A stretch of DNA of 64,000 bases. Source: Candidatus Sericytochromatia bacterium. GTDB taxonomy: Bacteria > Cyanobacteriota > Sericytochromatia > UBA7694. The notes beneath the pieces are model-generated. The model was given only the letters and a program-made list of their open reading frames with translations, did not search any database and was not told the origin of the DNA. The DNA is taken from contig JBBKWI010000139.1 of NCBI GenBank assembly GCA_037968875.1, positions 884 through 64,883 of the forward strand. The letters run 5' to 3'. This document shows, one piece after another, positions 13,047-30,746 of the stretch. The translations under genes were made by a program, and so were the position numbers. Positions within the stretch are counted from its first letter, which is position 1. Every line of letters begins with the position of its first letter.

Positions 13047-14741
13047 ATGAAAAGTAGCCTTCGCGTCCTGGCCAGCCTGGCCTTTATGAGTACTGTTATC
13101 GCCTGCCAACCCGCACCTCCGGTGGGCACCCCACCGGTGCCTTCAGCCTCGCCAACACCCGTGGTCACACCAACCCCGAGACCGACAGCACTCCCCACGC
13201 CAACTCCTGATCTCACCCCTACGCCAGTCCCGGGTCAGGAACGTCAGTTTGCAGCTATTTTGACGGGCAGCCAGGAAGTTCCTGCCGTCGGCGGCGCGGG
13301 TTATGGCACCTCACGCATCGTCTTAAATAAAGAAAGCAACACTGTTGAAATCTCCGTTGTGACCTCTGGTCTAAGCGGCCCGATCACCGGTGCTCATATT
13401 CATGCCGGCATCGCCGGTCAAAACGGCGACGTGGTCAAACCCCTCGCTATTCGTGGCAATGTTGTCACCGGCACCTGGCGTCTGAATGACACCGTCAGCC
13501 CGCTAACAGAAACCACCCTGGCCCAATTACTCAACGGCGAACTCTACGTCAATATCCACACCCAGGCCAATCCCGGGGGTGAAATCCGAGGTCAGGTTAC
13601 CGCGACTCAGGATGAGCTCTACCCCGTTTATCTGTCTGGCGATCAAGAAATTCCAGCGGTCGGCGGAGGTGCCATGGGTGCAGCCCTGGTGCGTATTGGC
13701 CCTGGCCAGAGCGAAGTCAAGATCGAAGGCTATGCCAATCAACTGACCTCAGAAATTATTGGCGCCCATATTCACAAAGGCGTTAAAGGTGCCAATGGTG
13801 CTGTAGTCAAGGCGTTAATTGTCGACAATAACAAGTTCTCAGTAACCTGGAAACGCAGCGATGCCACCAACCCACTGACTACAGAACTGCTGGCTGATTT
13901 GCGTGCAGGTAATTTGTATCTGAATGTACATACGCCCACCAATCCAGACGGAGAAGTGCGCGGTCAGGTGATGGCCTCTGCTCCATTGACCGTCAAAGCA
14001 GACAGTATGTTTGTGACTGAGCTCAGAGGCAGCAGCGAAGTCCCGGCGGTGAACAATGATGCTTATGGAGTCGCTGAACTCAAACTGAATGGCGATCGCG
14101 ACGAAGTTATGGTGGAAGTCACGACCTCTGGTCTGAGCGGCCCGATTACCGGCGCGCATATTCATAAAGGTCCGGCTAATGCCAATGGCGCAGTGGTCAA
14201 GCCTTTGACTATCAACGGCAATCGTTTGAGTGCCACTTGGAAAATGTCAGATAACCCCAACCCGCTGACCTTGACCCTCTTAAACGATCTCTTAACAGGG
14301 AATTTGTATCTCAATGCCCATACAGATGCCAATCCTGGCGGCGAAATTCGCGGTCAAATCATGAGTACCCAAAACAAAATCTACTCTGTGCTTTTAGAAG
14401 GTAATCAGGAAGTGCCTGCAGTCAATACCGACGCCAAAGGCTCAGCCTGGGTCATGATTTCACCAGATCACAGTCAGGTGACCGTTAAAGGTTACGCCCA
14501 TGGCTTAAGTGGCGTGATCACCGGCGCGCATATCCACGCTGGCCCACTGGGCTTAAGTGGCCCAGTCTTAAAACCACTGGTAGTCAATGGCAATGTCTAC
14601 GAGTTGACCTGGACCGCAACGGACGCCGTTGAACCTTTGACTGAAGAAAAAGTCAAAAAATTGATGAATGGCGAGTATTACATCAATGTACATACAGCAG
14701 CCAACCCCAATGGTGAGGTCCGCGCCCAAATCGTTGAATAA
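13047..14741 (+). CDS. Secreted lipoprotein with four tandem CHRD domains
   Basis: Signal peptide with lipobox (VIAC), Pro/Thr-rich linker, then four repeats of about 130 aa each carrying the CHRD signature (L.G.QEVPAV...GAHIH.G..G.NG.VVKPL...NLY.N.HT..NP.GE.RGQ). Confidence 0.8.
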   Translation: MKSSLRVLASLAFMSTVIACQPAPPVGTPPVPSASPTPVVTPTPRPTALPTPTPDLTPTPVPGQERQFAAILTGSQEVPAVGGAGYGTSRIVLNKESNTVEISVVTSGLSGPITGAHIHAGIAGQNGDVVKPLAIRGNVVTGTWRLNDTVSPLTETTLAQLLNGELYVNIHTQANPGGEIRGQVTATQDELYPVYLSGDQEIPAVGGGAMGAALVRIGPGQSEVKIEGYANQLTSEIIGAHIHKGVKGANGAVVKALIVDNNKFSVTWKRSDATNPLTTELLADLRAGNLYLNVHTPTNPDGEVRGQVMASAPLTVKADSMFVTELRGSSEVPAVNNDAYGVAELKLNGDRDEVMVEVTTSGLSGPITGAHIHKGPANANGAVVKPLTINGNRLSATWKMSDNPNPLTLTLLNDLLTGNLYLNAHTDANPGGEIRGQIMSTQNKIYSVLLEGNQEVPAVNTDAKGSAWVMISPDHSQVTVKGYAHGLSGVITGAHIHAGPLGLSGPVLKPLVVNGNVYELTWTATDAVEPLTEEKVKKLMNGEYYINVHTAANPNGEVRAQIVE

Positions 14742-15170: not shown

Positions 15171-15710
15171 ATGAAATGGACAAAATACTGCGTATCCGCT
15201 GCACTGGGCCTCAGCCTAAGTGCCTTACCACTGGTAGCACAAGCTCAGGTCTTTGATCAGATTCAAATCGATCAGATTCAACTGGATAGCTCTGTCACCG
15301 AACTGGCACAATTGGATCGCCGCAGCGGGCAACGTCTTGAAGATCTCAAACGGGATCCTGCCAAAGCAGCCCTGCTCTCAGCCCTCTATCCAGGCCTGGG
15401 CCATTTCTATATTGGCAACGATAATAACCGTGCCCTCTGGATCACTGGAGCAGGCACTCTGGTCATTGCCGGTAGTATTATCGGCTACGGCCTCTTAGCA
15501 GATCGCCCCGAAGAAGCCTCTGGCATGGGTAATACCCTGATCACCTTAGTCCTGGTGGGTTATCACCTCTGGAATGTGCGCGATGCCTATGTACAAACCG
15601 TGGACTATAACACCCTGCTCGAATCCCAAAATCGCCTCTCCTGGCTCGAACACCTGGATTTATCGATGCAACAAAACACCCTGTTCTTAACCTGGAAAAC
15701 CGTACTCTAA
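15171..15710 (+). CDS. Hypothetical secreted/membrane protein
   Basis: Signal peptide (ALPLVAQA), central hydrophobic block (LYPGLGHFYIGN...AGTLVIAGSIIGYGLL). Confidence 0.5.
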   Translation: MKWTKYCVSAALGLSLSALPLVAQAQVFDQIQIDQIQLDSSVTELAQLDRRSGQRLEDLKRDPAKAALLSALYPGLGHFYIGNDNNRALWITGAGTLVIAGSIIGYGLLADRPEEASGMGNTLITLVLVGYHLWNVRDAYVQTVDYNTLLESQNRLSWLEHLDLSMQQNTLFLTWKTVL

Positions 15711-17013: not shown

Positions 17014-17691
17014 GTGGCACTCATGCTCTTTAACGCCATCAACCTGTTGCTGTTTCTGGCTTTGTGCCTGATTGTCGGCTTTTGTTATTTGCTCGCTGGG
17101 CCGTCGTTACTGGCCCAGGTAACAGGAGGCGAGCACTGGTTTTTGCCTATCAACACAGCCAGCGGCCCGATCCCCGGATCAGAAATTTTGTTTCTTTTAT
17201 TAGTGGGGTTATTGCTAGCTTTCAGTCTTCAGATATTTAGTCAGGTCTTTCGCAGACAGTGGGATCTCAGCCTGCTACGCCGGGGCCTATCGCTCTGTCT
17301 AGGACTGATGCTCTGGGCGGTGATCGGTTATCAGGGATGGCTGCGACAGTCAGCCGCTGAGCAACAAATTAGCTGGTTGCAAGAACAGATAGAAGCCTTG
17401 CCCGCTCAGGCTAGCCCAGTACAGCTAGAGCAAGCTTTGGCTCCTTTTTTTAGTGCCCAGCCTCGTCTCAGTGCTTCGAGTTTATTACCCCTTGCCAATC
17501 AGAACAACGGACAATTACGCCTAAATCAGGGTTTGGCTGGCAGTTCTTTTTACGAAGTTCATACGCAGTTTAAAGCCCAAAAGCTCCAAAGCTGGCAAAT
17601 ACAGCATACACAGACCCTGAATCAGCAACGCCAATGTAATGTGATAGCCCCGGTGTCATCGGCAAAAACCACAGTCCAGACCTGCAAATAA
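17014..17691 (+). CDS. Hypothetical membrane protein
   Basis: Several TM helices in the N-terminal 130 aa, Gln-rich C-terminus. Confidence 0.45.
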   Translation: MALMLFNAINLLLFLALCLIVGFCYLLAGPSLLAQVTGGEHWFLPINTASGPIPGSEILFLLLVGLLLAFSLQIFSQVFRRQWDLSLLRRGLSLCLGLMLWAVIGYQGWLRQSAAEQQISWLQEQIEALPAQASPVQLEQALAPFFSAQPRLSASSLLPLANQNNGQLRLNQGLAGSSFYEVHTQFKAQKLQSWQIQHTQTLNQQRQCNVIAPVSSAKTTVQTCK

Positions 17692-17744
17692 ATTTGCTTT
17701 CGATAACCCGGAAATCAGCGGCACGGCCAAGCCCGAACAAATCT

Positions 17745-17832
17745 CACTCGCCAGAGCAAAAGCCTTTTCACCGATCACTGACGCCAAGTCTGGGATATCG
17801 GCAGGAGAATTGCGTTTTTTTTGCTCACATGC
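17745..17832 (-). pseudogene. Fragment homologous to the 3' end of the endonuclease I gene (duplicated gene end, no start codon)
   Basis: About 77% nucleotide identity to 18640..18727; translates to ...KRNSPADIPDLASVIGEKAF versus EndA C-terminus ...NRNPFVDIPDLASAIGEKAF. The reading frame is entered from a stop with no Met. Confidence 0.65.
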
Positions 17833-17835
17833 AGA

Positions 17836-18357
17836 CTAAAAGTTACCACTAAAGCTAATCACTGGCACTGAATAAATGTTATTTTGATTTGTGTCAACGC
17901 CATAACTAACATTGGTATTCTCTAAGCCGAGGCGTTTTCTCAAATCAGAATTATTCGTATTTGCATGCATTATTGGAGATACGACACCAATCACTCTTCC
18001 AATAGCATAAATCGGTATTGCCCATAGGGAGGCAAGCCCACTGAACCCACCTCCAGTTGATAGACCCATTCCTATCACAACCAGCGCAGCAATATCCACA
18101 ATAGAAATCAAGACTCCACCAATGGTGTCTCCTTGTTGAAACGAGCCTATTCCGAAAGGAAGGATATTGGTCAATACTGCTTGTAGGGGCTCTATTTTTT
18201 CAGCTTCATATCGTTTTAGAGCTGCTTGAGAGTCAATCTTTTGGTTCACAAAATCATTTTGAATGGTGATAACTTCAGATGCTGGATTCATCGTGCTAGC
18301 CCAGCCGGGTAAAGTGTACATAAGTACAAGGCTCAAACTGAGAATACATTTTTTCAT
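17836..18357 (-). CDS. Hypothetical lipoprotein with glycine-zipper segment, in a low-GC islet
   Basis: Signal peptide; GIGSF..GGVLISIVDIAALVVIGMGLSTGGGFSGLASLWAIPIYAIGRVIGV glycine-zipper; local GC clearly below the window average. Confidence 0.55.
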   Translation of the reverse strand: MKKCILSLSLVLMYTLPGWASTMNPASEVITIQNDFVNQKIDSQAALKRYEAEKIEPLQAVLTNILPFGIGSFQQGDTIGGVLISIVDIAALVVIGMGLSTGGGFSGLASLWAIPIYAIGRVIGVVSPIMHANTNNSDLRKRLGLENTNVSYGVDTNQNNIYSVPVISFSGNF

Positions 18358-18630
18358 AGCTGACTAAAACATCCGTTCCACAATATATATTTGGTTTTAA
18401 TAATTTTTTCGCTGTTGGAAGTGAAATTAGAAGCTTAAATTTCAATCCATGAGTGAATTGTATCGAATAAGTTACTGGATAAGTTGCATTTTGAATTTTC
18501 AGAAAGCAACACCGAAAAGCAATTCCTTTTTATTCTATTGCCGCTGTTATGCTGGGCCAGGTCATCCACATTTAAAACAAAAGCTTCGACCAAAATAATT
18601 GATCAAAGCTTTTGTTGGCAATAATGATTT

Positions 18631-19635
18631 TTAGAAGGTTTCTACAAAAGCCTTTTCGCCGATGGCTGAAGCCAGATCTGGAATATCGACAAAGGGATTA
18701 CGATTGTTTTGCTCACGGGCAATCTTCTCATGACGACTGCGCTCTTGGGCATCAACCGGATCAGCCTTGGCCCACTGGATATAAGTTTTGACCTGTTGAT
18801 CCCAGTAGACATCTTCTTTAAAGGCGCCTGTGCGAATATTCTCGTTGTGGTAGCGCAAGTAGAAGTAGAGCATGGCCCGAGCCGTATTGCCCTTTTGAAC
18901 ATCTGAGGGCTCAAAAATCGCCTGCAAGTCACGTCGCATGACGTCGTGTGGCTGCTGGTTCCAGGGCATATTGTACCATTGCTTGATATCCTGGGGATTG
19001 TGCTTACCAGTTTTGTCAATTACGCCCAGTTTAGAGCCATTGGCGGTTTGGTAGACAACGACACCTGTCGCCATGCCCAGGGGGTGGTTATTACGCATGC
19101 TATTGGGCTTGCTCAAGGTGGGGAAGAGGTGATGCATATCGGCTTTCATGGGAAGACGCTTGTCAAAGAAAGACTGGGGCCAGGTATGCTCGCAATTGAT
19201 AAAGTCGCCGCTCTGGCCATCGCGATTGGCATCGCCTTGCTCTTTGTAAGCATTGCCATTGTCACTGCGGCCGGGAATAAAAAGCTCTGAATAAGCGGCC
19301 ACCAAGCCTGGTGTCGTGCTGCTCTGAACCTGATCGGCATTACCATACATAAATGAGCGAGCGCCATTATACGAAGGTGTGCGACTGCCGTTGCTAATAA
19401 TCTTATGCATACTGGCAAACAAAGCATCACCCTGCTGACCCTGAGCCGCCTGATAATAGCTTTTCTGATCGGCTGGCAAGGGCGCAAACCAATCGCCTGT
19501 TGAAAAGCGTTGAAAATTTGCGGATTGGGCTTGTTGAGCAGACTGAAGGGGAGTGAAAGGACGCGGGGCAGAGCAAGAAACCAAAGTAAGGGCAAAAATA
19601 GAACTGGCAAATAAATGACGCAAAGCGAACTCCAA
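18631..19635 (-). CDS. endA: Extracellular endonuclease I (EndA/Vvn family)
   Basis: Signal peptide; endonuclease I motifs FINCEHTWPQSFF, HHLFP, and NTARAMLYFYLRY. Confidence 0.85.
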   Translation of the reverse strand: MEFALRHLFASSIFALTLVSCSAPRPFTPLQSAQQAQSANFQRFSTGDWFAPLPADQKSYYQAAQGQQGDALFASMHKIISNGSRTPSYNGARSFMYGNADQVQSSTTPGLVAAYSELFIPGRSDNGNAYKEQGDANRDGQSGDFINCEHTWPQSFFDKRLPMKADMHHLFPTLSKPNSMRNNHPLGMATGVVVYQTANGSKLGVIDKTGKHNPQDIKQWYNMPWNQQPHDVMRRDLQAIFEPSDVQKGNTARAMLYFYLRYHNENIRTGAFKEDVYWDQQVKTYIQWAKADPVDAQERSRHEKIAREQNNRNPFVDIPDLASAIGEKAFVETF

Positions 19636-19837
19636 TATTTGATTGTTAAATCTATATTAAGAGGTGAGCCCAGGTGATGTCAAGTAAAGAAAAACCGAAA
19701 GCCGTAATTAGAAATAGATTTAAATTACTGAAAATCAAAGAAAGTAACGAAAATAAAGCCCAGAAAGCGTATTTTAAACCGAGCTTAATGAGATGATTTT
19801 TCTCAGTTGAACTTTATTATCGAGCTGAGTTGTCAGC

Positions 19838-29552: not shown

Positions 29553-30746
29553 CTAAGAAGGAATTCCCGAAGAGCTATCTTCTCCCAGGCTTTGGCGCTC
29601 ATCATCACTCATTTCCAGATCCGTCATCGATTTGCCCATACGCCCACGATGCGCTGCGACATCATCGTCATCAGGTGGCTTGACTTGGCCGCCTTTTTGC
29701 TTCATTAGGTAGGCGATGATTTTGGCGATCGCGATATAGAAATCGGGGTGGACATACTCGCCCAGTTCACAAGCCCCATAGAGCCCACGGGCCAAAGGCG
29801 GATCTTCAAAAATCGGGATATCATGTTCTTTAGCGATTTCCTTGATGTAAATCGCTAACTCATCTCGGCCTTTGGCAACCACTTTGGGAGCTTCCATGCC
29901 ATCTTCATAACGAATGCCGACGGCATAGTGAGTTGGGTTCGAAACAACGGCCGACGCATCGGGTACTTCCTGGCGCACCTGCCCCATACTCATCTGACGC
30001 ATTTTTTGCTTTTGCTTGCCTTTGATTAAAGGGTCACCCTCGGTTTGTTTGTACTCGTCTTTGACTTCCTGCTTGGACATGCGCATCGATTTTTCGAATT
30101 CCCAGCGCTGGTAAAAATAATCAATAAAGGCGACCAGCAACATGGCTGCAGCAGTTTTTTTGGCGATCGTGATAATCAGGCCGCCGGCAATTACAAGCGC
30201 ATTGGCGATCGGATTGGTCAAACTGAAAATAATATTGGGAAGTTGATCCTGGATCGAGGTATAGACCACCCAGCCCACAATACTGGTTTTAATCGATGAT
30301 TTGATCAGCTCAACAACCGATTTTAATGAAAAAACACGTTTCAAGCCTTTGATCGGGTGAATTCGCTCTAACTGCGGTTTCAAGGGTTTGCCGGAGATCA
30401 AAATACCGATCTGAAGCACTTCAACCAGCAGGGCCGTAATAAAGACCACCCCAAAAATCGGCAGGACCATCGCACCCAGGGTTTTGACGGAGTAAATGCC
30501 CAGACCATAAAGATCTACAATCGTAAAATCCTTAATAAACCAGGGCATATCGTAAAAGTTAAACTGAATAAACTTAAAGATCGTTTTGTAGATATGCGGC
30601 CCAAACCAGTTCAGGGCATAGGCAGACATCAGAATCAAAATCGCAGTATTGACTTCTTTGGACTTGAGAATCTGGCCCTTTTGTCGTGCTTCGGCGCGTC
30701 GCTTGGGGGTCGCGTCTTCAGTTTTCGAGTCTTTGTCTTCGCTCAA
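29553..30746 (-). CDS. flhB: FlhB/YscU-family export-gate protein (full length, NPTH autocleavage site)
   Basis: N-terminal EDATPKRRAEARQKGQILKSKEV, four TM helices, cytoplasmic domain with NPTHYAV, acidic C-terminal extension. Confidence 0.85.
   Translation of the reverse strand: MSEDKDSKTEDATPKRRAEARQKGQILKSKEVNTAILILMSAYALNWFGPHIYKTIFKFIQFNFYDMPWFIKDFTIVDLYGLGIYSVKTLGAMVLPIFGVVFITALLVEVLQIGILISGKPLKPQLERIHPIKGLKRVFSLKSVVELIKSSIKTSIVGWVVYTSIQDQLPNIIFSLTNPIANALVIAGGLIITIAKKTAAAMLLVAFIDYFYQRWEFEKSMRMSKQEVKDEYKQTEGDPLIKGKQKQKMRQMSMGQVRQEVPDASAVVSNPTHYAVGIRYEDGMEAPKVVAKGRDELAIYIKEIAKEHDIPIFEDPPLARGLYGACELGEYVHPDFYIAIAKIIAYLMKQKGGQVKPPDDDDVAAHRGRMGKSMTDLEMSDDERQSLGEDSSSGIPS

Follow-up and report, generated by a model that had tools for sequence, protein, structure and literature searches.

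A degenerate second endA 3′ end joined to a P13-family gene in a Sericytochromatia genome

Behind the endonuclease I gene endA of this bacterium lies a second, degenerate copy of the end of that same gene, and between the two stands a single gene of low GC content. How a gene end came to be present twice, in the same orientation and on either side of unrelated coding sequence, is the question that this locus raises in the Sericytochromatia, a poorly sampled lineage of non-photosynthetic relatives of cyanobacteria. We refer here to the whole 64-kb stretch of DNA analysed as the window. The locus is very probably a recombination scar holding no active element, in which a compositionally foreign, complete P13-family gene has been joined at its stop codon to a dead endA end; the route by which the scar arose can be proposed only tentatively.

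The live endA gene and its repeated end

Occupying positions 18631–19635 on the minus strand is the live endA, the product of which matches PF04231 (Endonuclease_1) with 128.9 bits (gathering score 25) over profile positions 8–234 of 235, and is predicted to be a periplasmic or extracellular endonuclease I. EndA itself carries a lipobox, LTLVSC, within a lipoprotein-type signal, and is 73% identical to the Sericytochromatia orthologue at locus L001. The corresponding NCBI gene call (P0122, 330 aa, 100% identical) starts four codons later. The gene is intact, ending in its own stop codon and, beginning 15 nt past it, its own hairpin terminator (18576–18616, minus strand), composed of an 18-bp stem followed by UUUUAAAU. 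This hairpin has a fold energy of −26.4 kcal/mol (z −3.7), with none of 200 shuffles equally stable, and no repeated family of it was found. A compositional step inside endA, marking a foreign 3′ portion, was considered and is not significant: GC3 of the last 30 codons is 0.40, a value reached by 8% of genomic 30-codon windows.

The end of endA recurs downstream in direct orientation and in frame, positions 17757–17833 aligning with 18645–18721 over 77 nt at 78% identity, with a start-to-start spacing of 888. Blastn recovers the pair at 79% over 72 nt (E 1e-12) and tblastn at 72% over 25 aa (E 2e-5), and the window contains just one other direct-repeat family of 40 nt or more. The direct repeat of about 77% identity proposed in the initial annotation is thereby borne out; the intervals given for it (18640–18727 and 17745–17832) lie in the right region but are out of register by about 7 nt, with an offset of 895 rather than 888, and are slightly too long. 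The copies agree without interruption over at most 13 nt (GAAAAGGCTTTTG), the next longest run being 10 nt (GTGAGCAAAA, at the 5′ edge); such lengths would in principle be enough for a crossover core, and conserved codons also predict them. An assembly chimera was rejected, because a shared stretch of at most 13 identical bases is, we infer, too short for an assembler to have joined the copies.

Copy A of the repeat (18646–18723, minus strand) comprises codons 305–330 of the live endA (IAREQNNRNPFVDIPDLASAIGEKAF), after which the gene continues with VETF and its stop codon; this copy contains the invariant motif QxNRNPF[VI]D[IVA]P, as do all homologues. Copy B (17758–17835, minus strand) is a dead endA 3′ fragment of 26 codons (SACEQKKRNSPADIPDLASVIGEKAF), lying 795 nt (17836–18630) downstream of the live stop codon, with strand and reading frame in agreement. 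It has no start codon, in agreement with its earlier description as an EndA-like C-terminus lacking one, and directly upstream of it in the same frame is the stop codon of the P13 gene. All 16 homologue tails covering the motif read NRNPF; in copy B it is destroyed (KKRNSPA, the motif position reading RNSPA), and the fragment is therefore dead.

Beyond the fragment the frame continues through 17656–17757 (minus strand) as ALASEICSGLAVPLISGLSKANLFAGLDCGFCR and then reaches a stop; this continuation does not resemble the tail of the live endA, and it shares 36 nt with the 3′ end of the convergent gene. In homologues, the tail beyond the motif is about 4 to about 30 aa long. Neither a terminator nor significant RNA structure (z 0.19) was found in the fragment region. 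The window holds no second intact endA, just this fragment of 25–26 codons; nothing resembling the 5′ 90% of the gene was found besides the live copy.

Copy B matches the live end at 58 of 75 nt and the L001 orthologue at 50 of 75, and shares with the live end GEKAF together with TCA and CCA codons that are absent from the orthologues; with L001–L003 as outgroups, most of the derived changes fall on copy B. Over all 26 codons the two copies differ with pS 0.50 and pN 0.17 (P = 0.016). In codons 13–26 there are six synonymous differences and one nonsynonymous (P = 0.001), and seven of the eight nonsynonymous changes fall in the 11 codons nearest the junction (P = 0.018). Synonymous divergence (pS 0.5–0.6) is about that between orthologues of different genera. 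All of these rate estimates are noisy, only 26 codons being usable, and from those 26 codons they argue that copies A and B diverged under purifying selection, as working genes. The confinement of divergence almost to synonymous sites shows that two endA ends, both presumably functional, coexisted or were exchanged.

The P13-family gene between the copies

Placed between the two endA ends is a complete gene for a 173-aa protein with a Sec signal peptide (17836–18357, minus strand). The sole Pfam family matched at E ≤ 0.01 is PF05628, the Borrelia-P13 family (44 bits against a cut-off of 25); NF033724 is matched with 45.6 bits, under its equivalog cut-off of 100. Borrelia plasmid P13 paralogues are about 31% identical over 84–92% of the length of the gene, the N64, P67, S72, G76 and D77 columns are present, and the gene is complete to the family-invariant C-terminal F. 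Judged by these matches, the product is a full-length P13-family porin homologue and a putative porin. The label of glycine-zipper lipoprotein that it had initially received does not hold, as the N-terminus MKKCILSLSLVLMYTLPGWAS is a Sec-type signal without an L-x-x-C lipobox and the assignment is to PF05628 rather than to any glycine-zipper family. The NCBI call for the gene drops the signal peptide.

The P13 gene has a GC content of 0.404 and a GC3 of 0.345, the lowest GC3 among 54 ORFs (mean GC 0.500, s.d. 0.030; mean GC3 0.527, s.d. 0.048). It appears compositionally foreign, albeit less securely given that low GC3 is also a feature of the P13 homologues of two out of four other genomes: those of L035 and L004 are GC3-poor relative to their neighbours, and those of L037 and L039 are not. 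As proof of transfer of the gene, GC3 is weakened by the same two homologues. The islet had been described as low in GC. The dip exists but varies along the islet: the P13 gene stands out, the spacer between it and endA (18358–18630) has a GC content (0.326) inside the intergenic range of the window (0.26–0.53), and the fragment region (17692–17835) has a coding-like GC content of 0.50.

The AT-rich spacer holds the endA terminator and presumably also the P13 promoter. Its earlier characterization as promoter-like finds no backing in a sigma-70 scan, which returned seven sites where 4.6 would be expected; in the spacer a single one lies on the minus strand, a weak match (9/12) that overlaps the terminator. 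Bounding the islet on the other side is a convergent ORF for a 225-aa membrane protein (17014–17691, plus strand), of normal composition (GC3 0.527), with no Pfam, NCBIfam or PHROG match and absent beside hutI in relatives.

An indexed search for a P13 donor returned the window's own protein as its sole match, and an exhaustive HMMER search gave no homologue exceeding 44% identity across the part that aligned. Within the Sericytochromatia, P13 homologues are ordinary chromosomal genes in plain contexts, and donors therefore exist within the class. The stop codon of the P13 gene abuts copy B in frame, with the junction within 0–2 nt of the stop, and this in-frame junction is explained by no model.

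Origin of the scar

The initial annotation proposed that an element had integrated into the 3′ end of endA while supplying a replacement gene end, and called the result a classic footprint. Two components of that proposal are in place, namely a dead endA end in direct orientation and one compositionally foreign gene between the copies, and the almost purely synonymous divergence of the 14 best-conserved codons resembles that of icd and icdC at the e14 prophage (PMC13626634). To make the footprint classic it would take at least one of a recombinase, a demonstrable attachment core, an empty site or the same element elsewhere, and none of these was found in the window or in relatives no closer than about 74% in protein identity. 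The accompanying remark that no integrase is left agrees with the Pfam search: among the ORFs of 100 aa or more in the window, none has an integrase or transposase domain. Searches of the window also gave no tRNA or tmRNA gene, no Rfam family, no phage DNA similarity and no PHROG match. No viral contig carries the pattern NRNPF[VI]DIP[DN]L, and at the 58 other endA- or P13-bearing loci there is neither a stand-alone endA end nor an insertion at the endA 3′ end.

Across species-representative genomes, metagenome contigs and protein searches, the closest EndA and HutI proteins are about 74% identical. With the two best HutI relatives synteny extends over the gene at 15171 and hutI and no further, and nothing downstream of endA or of the fragment aligned with the DNA of orthologues L001–L003. 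These closest orthologous loci have a single endA each. Same-orientation tandem pairs of endA with short spacers are found at L018, L047/L048, L050, L052 and L053, in more distant relatives that are 41–46% identical, and the 273-bp spacer seen here fits their range; at L051 the 3′ end of an upstream endA at the edge of a short contig is consistent with another such pair. A second endA paralogue had been named at the outset as an explanation that would overturn the reading of the repeat as an element footprint. None is intact in the window, but the tandem genes of related genomes make it a live rival.

Our leading, though still doubtful, explanation is that the scar arose from a tandem endA pair, the downstream member of which was truncated on replacement by the P13 gene. 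The lineage would once have borne two tandem endA genes, as several related genomes still do, the downstream one a putative second full-length copy. Both would have been functional for a long time, and we propose that the best-conserved codons differ almost only synonymously because of this. An illegitimate replacement would then, in this presumed order of events, have put the low-GC P13 gene in place of roughly 305 codons at the start of the downstream copy, leaving a stranded end that would have begun to decay and lost NRNPF. Speaking for such a truncation are a real and rare repeat, a fragment that is a pseudogene piece closest to the live end, divergence of the kind left by purifying selection, tandem pairs in relatives, a P13 gene of low GC3 that is complete to its C-terminal F, donors within the class, and the lack of any integrase, transposase, tRNA gene, Rfam or phage signal in the window. 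It needs two events, a duplication and a replacement, although a single insertion would give the same layout; the closest loci have one endA and the arrays occur in the 41–46% identical relatives; and no remnant is seen of the 5′ 90% of the second copy. It also leaves the clustering of nonsynonymous changes towards the junction (seven of eight, P = 0.018) to chance or error-prone junction repair, and gives no account of a junction in frame and 0–2 nt from the P13 stop codon.

That single insertion could have been made by an integrative element that hit the 3′ end of a lone endA site-specifically, supplied a surrogate end and terminator (18631–18721) and displaced the original end to 17758–17835, subsequently losing everything but P13 to leave a 0.89-kb, CIME-like remnant with attachment sites. 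The geometry would be exactly that of icd, e14 and icdC as laid out in PMC13626634, decayed elements with surviving attachment sites are frequent in streptococci at gene 3′ ends (PMC7563491), and either the 10-nt run GTGAGCAAAA or the 13-nt run could act as the core. Synonymous-only divergence in codons 13–26 would suit a host-derived end opposite a surrogate one. With a crossover near codons 12–14, fragment codons 6–12 would be element DNA that was never expressed, which would explain the clustering of nonsynonymous changes (P = 0.018), and in a circularized form the P13 gene would regain a hairpin terminator about 110 nt downstream. We nevertheless consider this origin unlikely, given the lack of a recombinase in the islet or the 64 kb, an islet smaller than every gene-carrying CIME of PMC7563491, the 58 other loci without an insertion, the lack of a viral contig with the motif or of any phage DNA or PHROG match, and the plain chromosomal contexts of P13 homologues elsewhere. 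A displaced original end would, moreover, provide EndA with a tail of 33 aa, the codons of which overlap the convergent gene. More improbable still is a variant in which the islet is itself a minimal, integrase-less mobile cassette of about 0.9 kb (promoter, P13, endA-like attachment segment and terminator), moved in trans by a recombinase encoded elsewhere and both targeting and repairing the endA 3′ end.

Similarly unlikely, in our estimate, is a one-sided homologous event such as homology-facilitated illegitimate recombination, in which DNA of a related bacterium carrying endA, a terminator and the P13 gene was anchored in endA and closed by an illegitimate joint at about resident codon 305, installing the donor end with P13 and stranding the resident end. 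One event would suffice and no recombinase would be needed, joints of this type forming at 3–10 bp of microhomology in transformable bacteria (PMC6382021). Such an insertion would explain why homology between the copies begins exactly at the joint and, with one donor and one resident end, why the two resemble long-diverged functional alleles; the lineage-specific features common to fragment and live end are those that a closely related donor predicts. Yet no known genome has P13 directly downstream of endA (at L004 it is 8 kb away on the opposite strand), endA has no compositional step, no P13 homologue exceeds 44% identity in the aligned part, and the process presupposes competence, which is putative for the Sericytochromatia. 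A recent local duplication of the endA 3′ end, through a long target-site duplication or a replication-slippage insertion with one copy decaying neutrally, would yield direct repeats flanking an insertion and is very improbable: the synonymous excess argues against it, 22% divergence with that excess (P = 0.001 in codons 13–26) being unlike neutral decay, and pS of 0.5–0.6 is about that of orthologues from different genera. Known target-site duplications fall far short of 77 nt, which also counts against it.

For closer relatives, truncation of a tandem copy would predict two full endA genes with the second ending ...DIPDLASVIGEKAFALASE, whereas the explanations in which an original end was displaced would predict one endA ending ...DIPDLASVIGEKAFALASE and followed by the convergent 225-aa gene. 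Should closer genomes appear, the locus would serve to test site-specific elements against recombination between endA paralogues as a route of gene acquisition in the Sericytochromatia. Its present value is mainly one of annotation, with 17758–17835 to be marked as an endA pseudogene fragment and its neighbour as a full-length P13-family porin homologue. It is a small, clean example of how a gene-end scar may date and orient a gene acquisition in a poorly sampled lineage, and neither opens nor settles a larger question. If the mobile-cassette reading were true, this would be the first integrative-element footprint described in the Sericytochromatia, with outer-membrane P13 porins as mobile cargo.

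Comparison with known systems

The closest likeness in layout is icd, e14 and icdC of Escherichia coli K-12 (Hill et al. 1989), where foreign DNA separates an intact gene, provided with an alternative 3′ end, from a C-terminal pseudogene fragment in direct orientation; according to PMC13626634, most differences between the two ends are synonymous or conservative, and e14 spans 15 kb, encodes recombination functions of its own and is excised on SOS induction. The islet here, in contrast, is 0.89 kb long with one cargo gene and no recombinase, and the NRNPF part of its fragment is degenerate.

Streptococcal CIMEs, decayed ICEs or IMEs at the 3′ ends of rpmG, rpsI, fda, rplL and tRNA-Lys genes, likewise consist of integrase-less cargo DNA bounded by direct repeats, one of them in a gene 3′ end. 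Decayed elements without recombination genes measure 1.2–13 kb, and microCIMEs 130–220 bp; they are identified through attachment sites common to intact ICEs or IMEs at the same site, often in tandem (PMC7563491). For endA or the Sericytochromatia no such element family is known, the repeats are only 78% identical, and neither the 58 loci nor the viral contigs revealed an element of any kind at the 3′ end of endA. In homology-facilitated illegitimate recombination of naturally transformable bacteria (de Vries and Wackernagel 2002, via PMC6382021), as in the one-sided event considered above, foreign DNA enters through one homologous and one illegitimate joint, and part of a resident gene can be stranded; the products known have mainly been obtained in laboratory selections.

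The gene between the copies resembles Borrelia P13 (PF05628 / NF033724) in its near full-length match, N-terminal signal, Gly-rich membrane core and conserved C-terminus, albeit at about 30% identity and below the equivalog cut-off; it is chromosomal, comes from a non-photosynthetic cyanobacterial relative, and encodes a putative porin. The tandem endonuclease-I arrays at L018, L047, L050, L052 and L053, which belong to Sericytochromatia and to related metagenomic contigs, have a second endA coding sequence downstream in the same orientation after a short spacer, whereas here just the last 26 conserved codons of a putative second copy are present, with an unrelated gene in place of the rest.

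A repeated endA end

The live endA gene (18631–19635, minus strand) encodes a 334-residue endonuclease I (PF04231, 128.9 bits), whose signal is of lipoprotein type (LTLVSC). The final conserved codons of the gene (18645–18721) are repeated at 17757–17833 in direct orientation, without gaps, over 77 nt and with 78% identity (blastn E value of 1e-12; tblastn 72% over 25 residues, E value of 2e-5), the fragment reading SACEQKKRNSPADIPDLASVIGEKAF and the live gene end IAREQNNRNPFVDIPDLASAIGEKAF. The existence and direct orientation of this repeat, as described in the initial annotation, are borne out; apart from a register shift of about 7 nt, the coordinates given there are right. No other direct repeats in the 64-kb window reach 40 nt except internal CHRD-domain repeats at 13–16 kb; their source is a plus-strand gene (13047–14741) for a 564-residue protein with a weak Cu/Zn-SOD-like stretch in addition to its four CHRD domains.

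A 273-bp spacer separates endA from the next gene on this strand, the P13-like gene described below. At its start, 15 nt past the endA stop codon, is a hairpin with an 18-bp stem followed by a U-run (z of −3.7), and the live gene thus has its own terminator and a complete end. Directly 5′ of endA, in intergenic DNA of 32% GC, is a near-consensus sigma-70-type promoter (TTGACA, 18 nt, TAATAT; 19654–19683, minus strand).

The listed homologue tails share the conserved motif Q(N/G)NRNPF(V/I)D(I/V/A)P, with NRNPF invariant in all 16 tails that span it; the fragment has QKKRNSPADIP at this position and, owing to this replacement, is nonfunctional. Its frame stays open for 33 further codons past GEKAF (17656–17757, minus strand), overlapping by 36 nt the 3′ end of a convergent 225-residue ORF, and this extension may be the vestige of a long EndA tail or a coincidence.

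Over 26 codons the copies differ by 9 synonymous and 10 nonsynonymous changes (pS of 0.50, pN of 0.17; synonymous excess P = 0.016), and over codons 13–26 (DIPDLAS.IGEKAF) by 6 and 1 (pS of 0.60, pN of 0.03; P = 0.001). Judged from these counts, the copies have not diverged neutrally. Their synonymous divergence is near that of orthologues from different genera (pS of 0.68 between the live gene and L001, one of the three closest endA orthologue loci) and, together with the synonymous excess, indicates that, for most of the time since they separated, the two ends belonged to functional genes. This pattern excludes recent local duplication with subsequent decay.

With the closest orthologues (L001–L003) as outgroups, most derived changes fall on the fragment side. 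Nonsynonymous changes are clustered, 7 of 8 lying within 11 codons beside the junction with the neighbouring P13-like gene (P = 0.018). The fragment is nearest to the live end (58/75 nt, compared with 50/75 to L001), and the two have in common GEKAF and TCA and CCA codons that the orthologues lack; this closeness points to a lineage-born paralogue or the endA of a fairly close relative as its source.

The P13-like gene

Between the copies is a gene for a P13-family membrane-protein homologue of 173 residues (17836–18357, minus strand; PF05628, 44 bits; cut-off 25), whose NCBIfam P13_porin match of 45.6 bits is under that model's equivalog cut-off of 100. Borrelia plasmid P13 paralogues share about 31% identity with it over 84–92% of its length. 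Labelled a glycine-zipper lipoprotein in the initial annotation, the protein instead has a Sec-type signal peptide without a lipobox, and PF05628 is its sole Pfam family at E ≤ 0.01. The NCBI gene call (P0121, 161 residues) begins at Met13, cutting off the signal peptide MKKCILSLSLVL; a start at 18357, giving the 173-residue ORF, yields a proper Sec signal.

The protein reaches a terminal phenylalanine that is invariant in 18/18 aligned family members, so the gene is complete and its stop codon (17836–17838) its own. Directly abutting this codon, with zero gap and in the same frame, is the endA fragment. In the 18 aligned proteins the terminal phenylalanine is mostly accompanied by an aromatic residue four positions before it, a combination that, as sequence, resembles an outer-membrane targeting signal.

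The gene has the lowest GC (0.404) and GC3 (0.345) among 54 ORFs, for which the means are 0.500 (s.d. 0.030) and 0.527 (s.d. 0.048), and was probably acquired. The GC3 anomaly may partly be a family property, since GC3 is also below that of the neighbours in homologues at two of four other Sericytochromatia loci (L035, 228–725 and L004, 18919–19452, as opposed to L037, 8001–8549 and L039, 8001–8474). The spacer (GC 0.326) is inside the usual intergenic range of the genome (0.26–0.53), and the fragment region (GC 0.50) is coding-like. Homologues of this ('Borrelia') porin family are widespread as chromosomal genes in Sericytochromatia, in ordinary neighbourhoods, and some bear the NCBI name 'P13 family porin [Candidatus Sericytochromatia bacterium]'. 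Located 3′ of the P13 gene in L035 and L039 is a co-oriented gene of 215–235 codons belonging to no known family.

Genomic setting and relatives

Surrounding the islet are housekeeping genes: aconitase, a response regulator, hutI, an S49 peptidase, Usp and UvrD. Window ORFs of at least 100 residues contain no Pfam domain of integrase, transposase or phage-related type, and there was no PHROG match for the four local proteins, no Rfam family at 16.5–20.5 kb, and no tRNA or tmRNA gene or phage DNA similarity. The coding pattern NRNPF[VI]DIP[DN]L is absent from the viral contigs searched.

By its EndA and HutI proteins the window belongs to Candidatus Sericytochromatia, although the best matches reach only 73–74% protein identity. 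The two nearest HutI-bearing contigs (L030 and L033; HutI 71–74% identical) share the gene at 15171 and hutI with the window, diverge immediately after hutI (from 16981 in the window), and lack the 225-residue gene, the P13 gene, endA and the CarboxypepD_reg-domain gene; in the nearest endA loci, endA is the only gene in common. Adjoining hutI in L030 (3385–6498) are genes for FliH and a type III secretion-type ATPase, and the window carries an FlhB/YscU-family export-apparatus gene (29553–30746, minus strand); both sets resemble the genes of flagella or type III secretion systems, here in a non-photosynthetic cyanobacterial lineage.

Endonuclease I genes are frequently paired in these bacteria: same-orientation tandems separated by short spacers are present in L018 (10001–12156), L047/L048 (L047 1535–3699), L050 (44–2125; downstream copy cut by the contig end), L052 (256–2089) and L053 (71–1907), and the short contig L051 has at its edge an upstream endA 3′ end consistent with a further pair. 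The upstream copies of L018 and L047 carry C-terminal tails of about 25–30 residues, and the downstream copies carry short tails. Dispersed paralogues can number three or more in one genome (L001, L004 and L022, from one MAG). None of the 58 fetched loci has another isolated endA C-terminal fragment or insertion at an endA 3′ end.

Origin of the scar

We tentatively regard the fragment as the remnant of a truncated tandem paralogue. A second endA would have stood downstream of the first, as in several relatives, and an incoming P13 gene would have replaced its first ~305 codons. The tandem arrays are direct precedent, two functional ends would have coexisted for long, and a recombinase is unnecessary; however, two events are required, endA is single in the closest orthologous loci, and the 5′ part of the second copy has left no remnant. 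Homology-facilitated illegitimate recombination (PMC6382021) with a relative's DNA carrying endA, a terminator and a P13 gene would need one event and no recombinase, and would account for homology starting exactly at the joint, but is unlikely, as no donor with such an arrangement is known and endA has no compositional step. Similarly improbable are other routes, for example recombination involving a dispersed endA paralogue from another part of the genome. The in-frame coincidence of the joint with the P13 stop codon is explained by no model.

The initial annotation proposed integration of an element that supplied a surrogate gene end and then decayed to an integrase-less remnant. Site-specific integration of this kind is seen for icd/e14/icdC (PMC13626634), and CIMEs (PMC7563491) are comparable remnants. 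The geometry is identical to that of icd/e14/icdC, a single insertion is enough, stretches of 10 and 13 identical nt are a possible core, and a crossover near codons 12–14 would make the clustered degenerate codons never-expressed element DNA. What stands of this proposal is a gene-end scar beside a probably acquired gene; we consider the element itself doubtful, as neither a recombinase, nor a related element, nor a second case at any endA was found. An integrative element is no more likely than a paralogue-based origin, and the fragment is about equally likely to be the end of a lost second copy or the displaced original end. The locus is a new instance of a familiar genomic scar, of modest annotation value and small wider significance. 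The islet is smaller than the gene-carrying CIMEs described (PMC7563491), a difference that counts against integration and decay.
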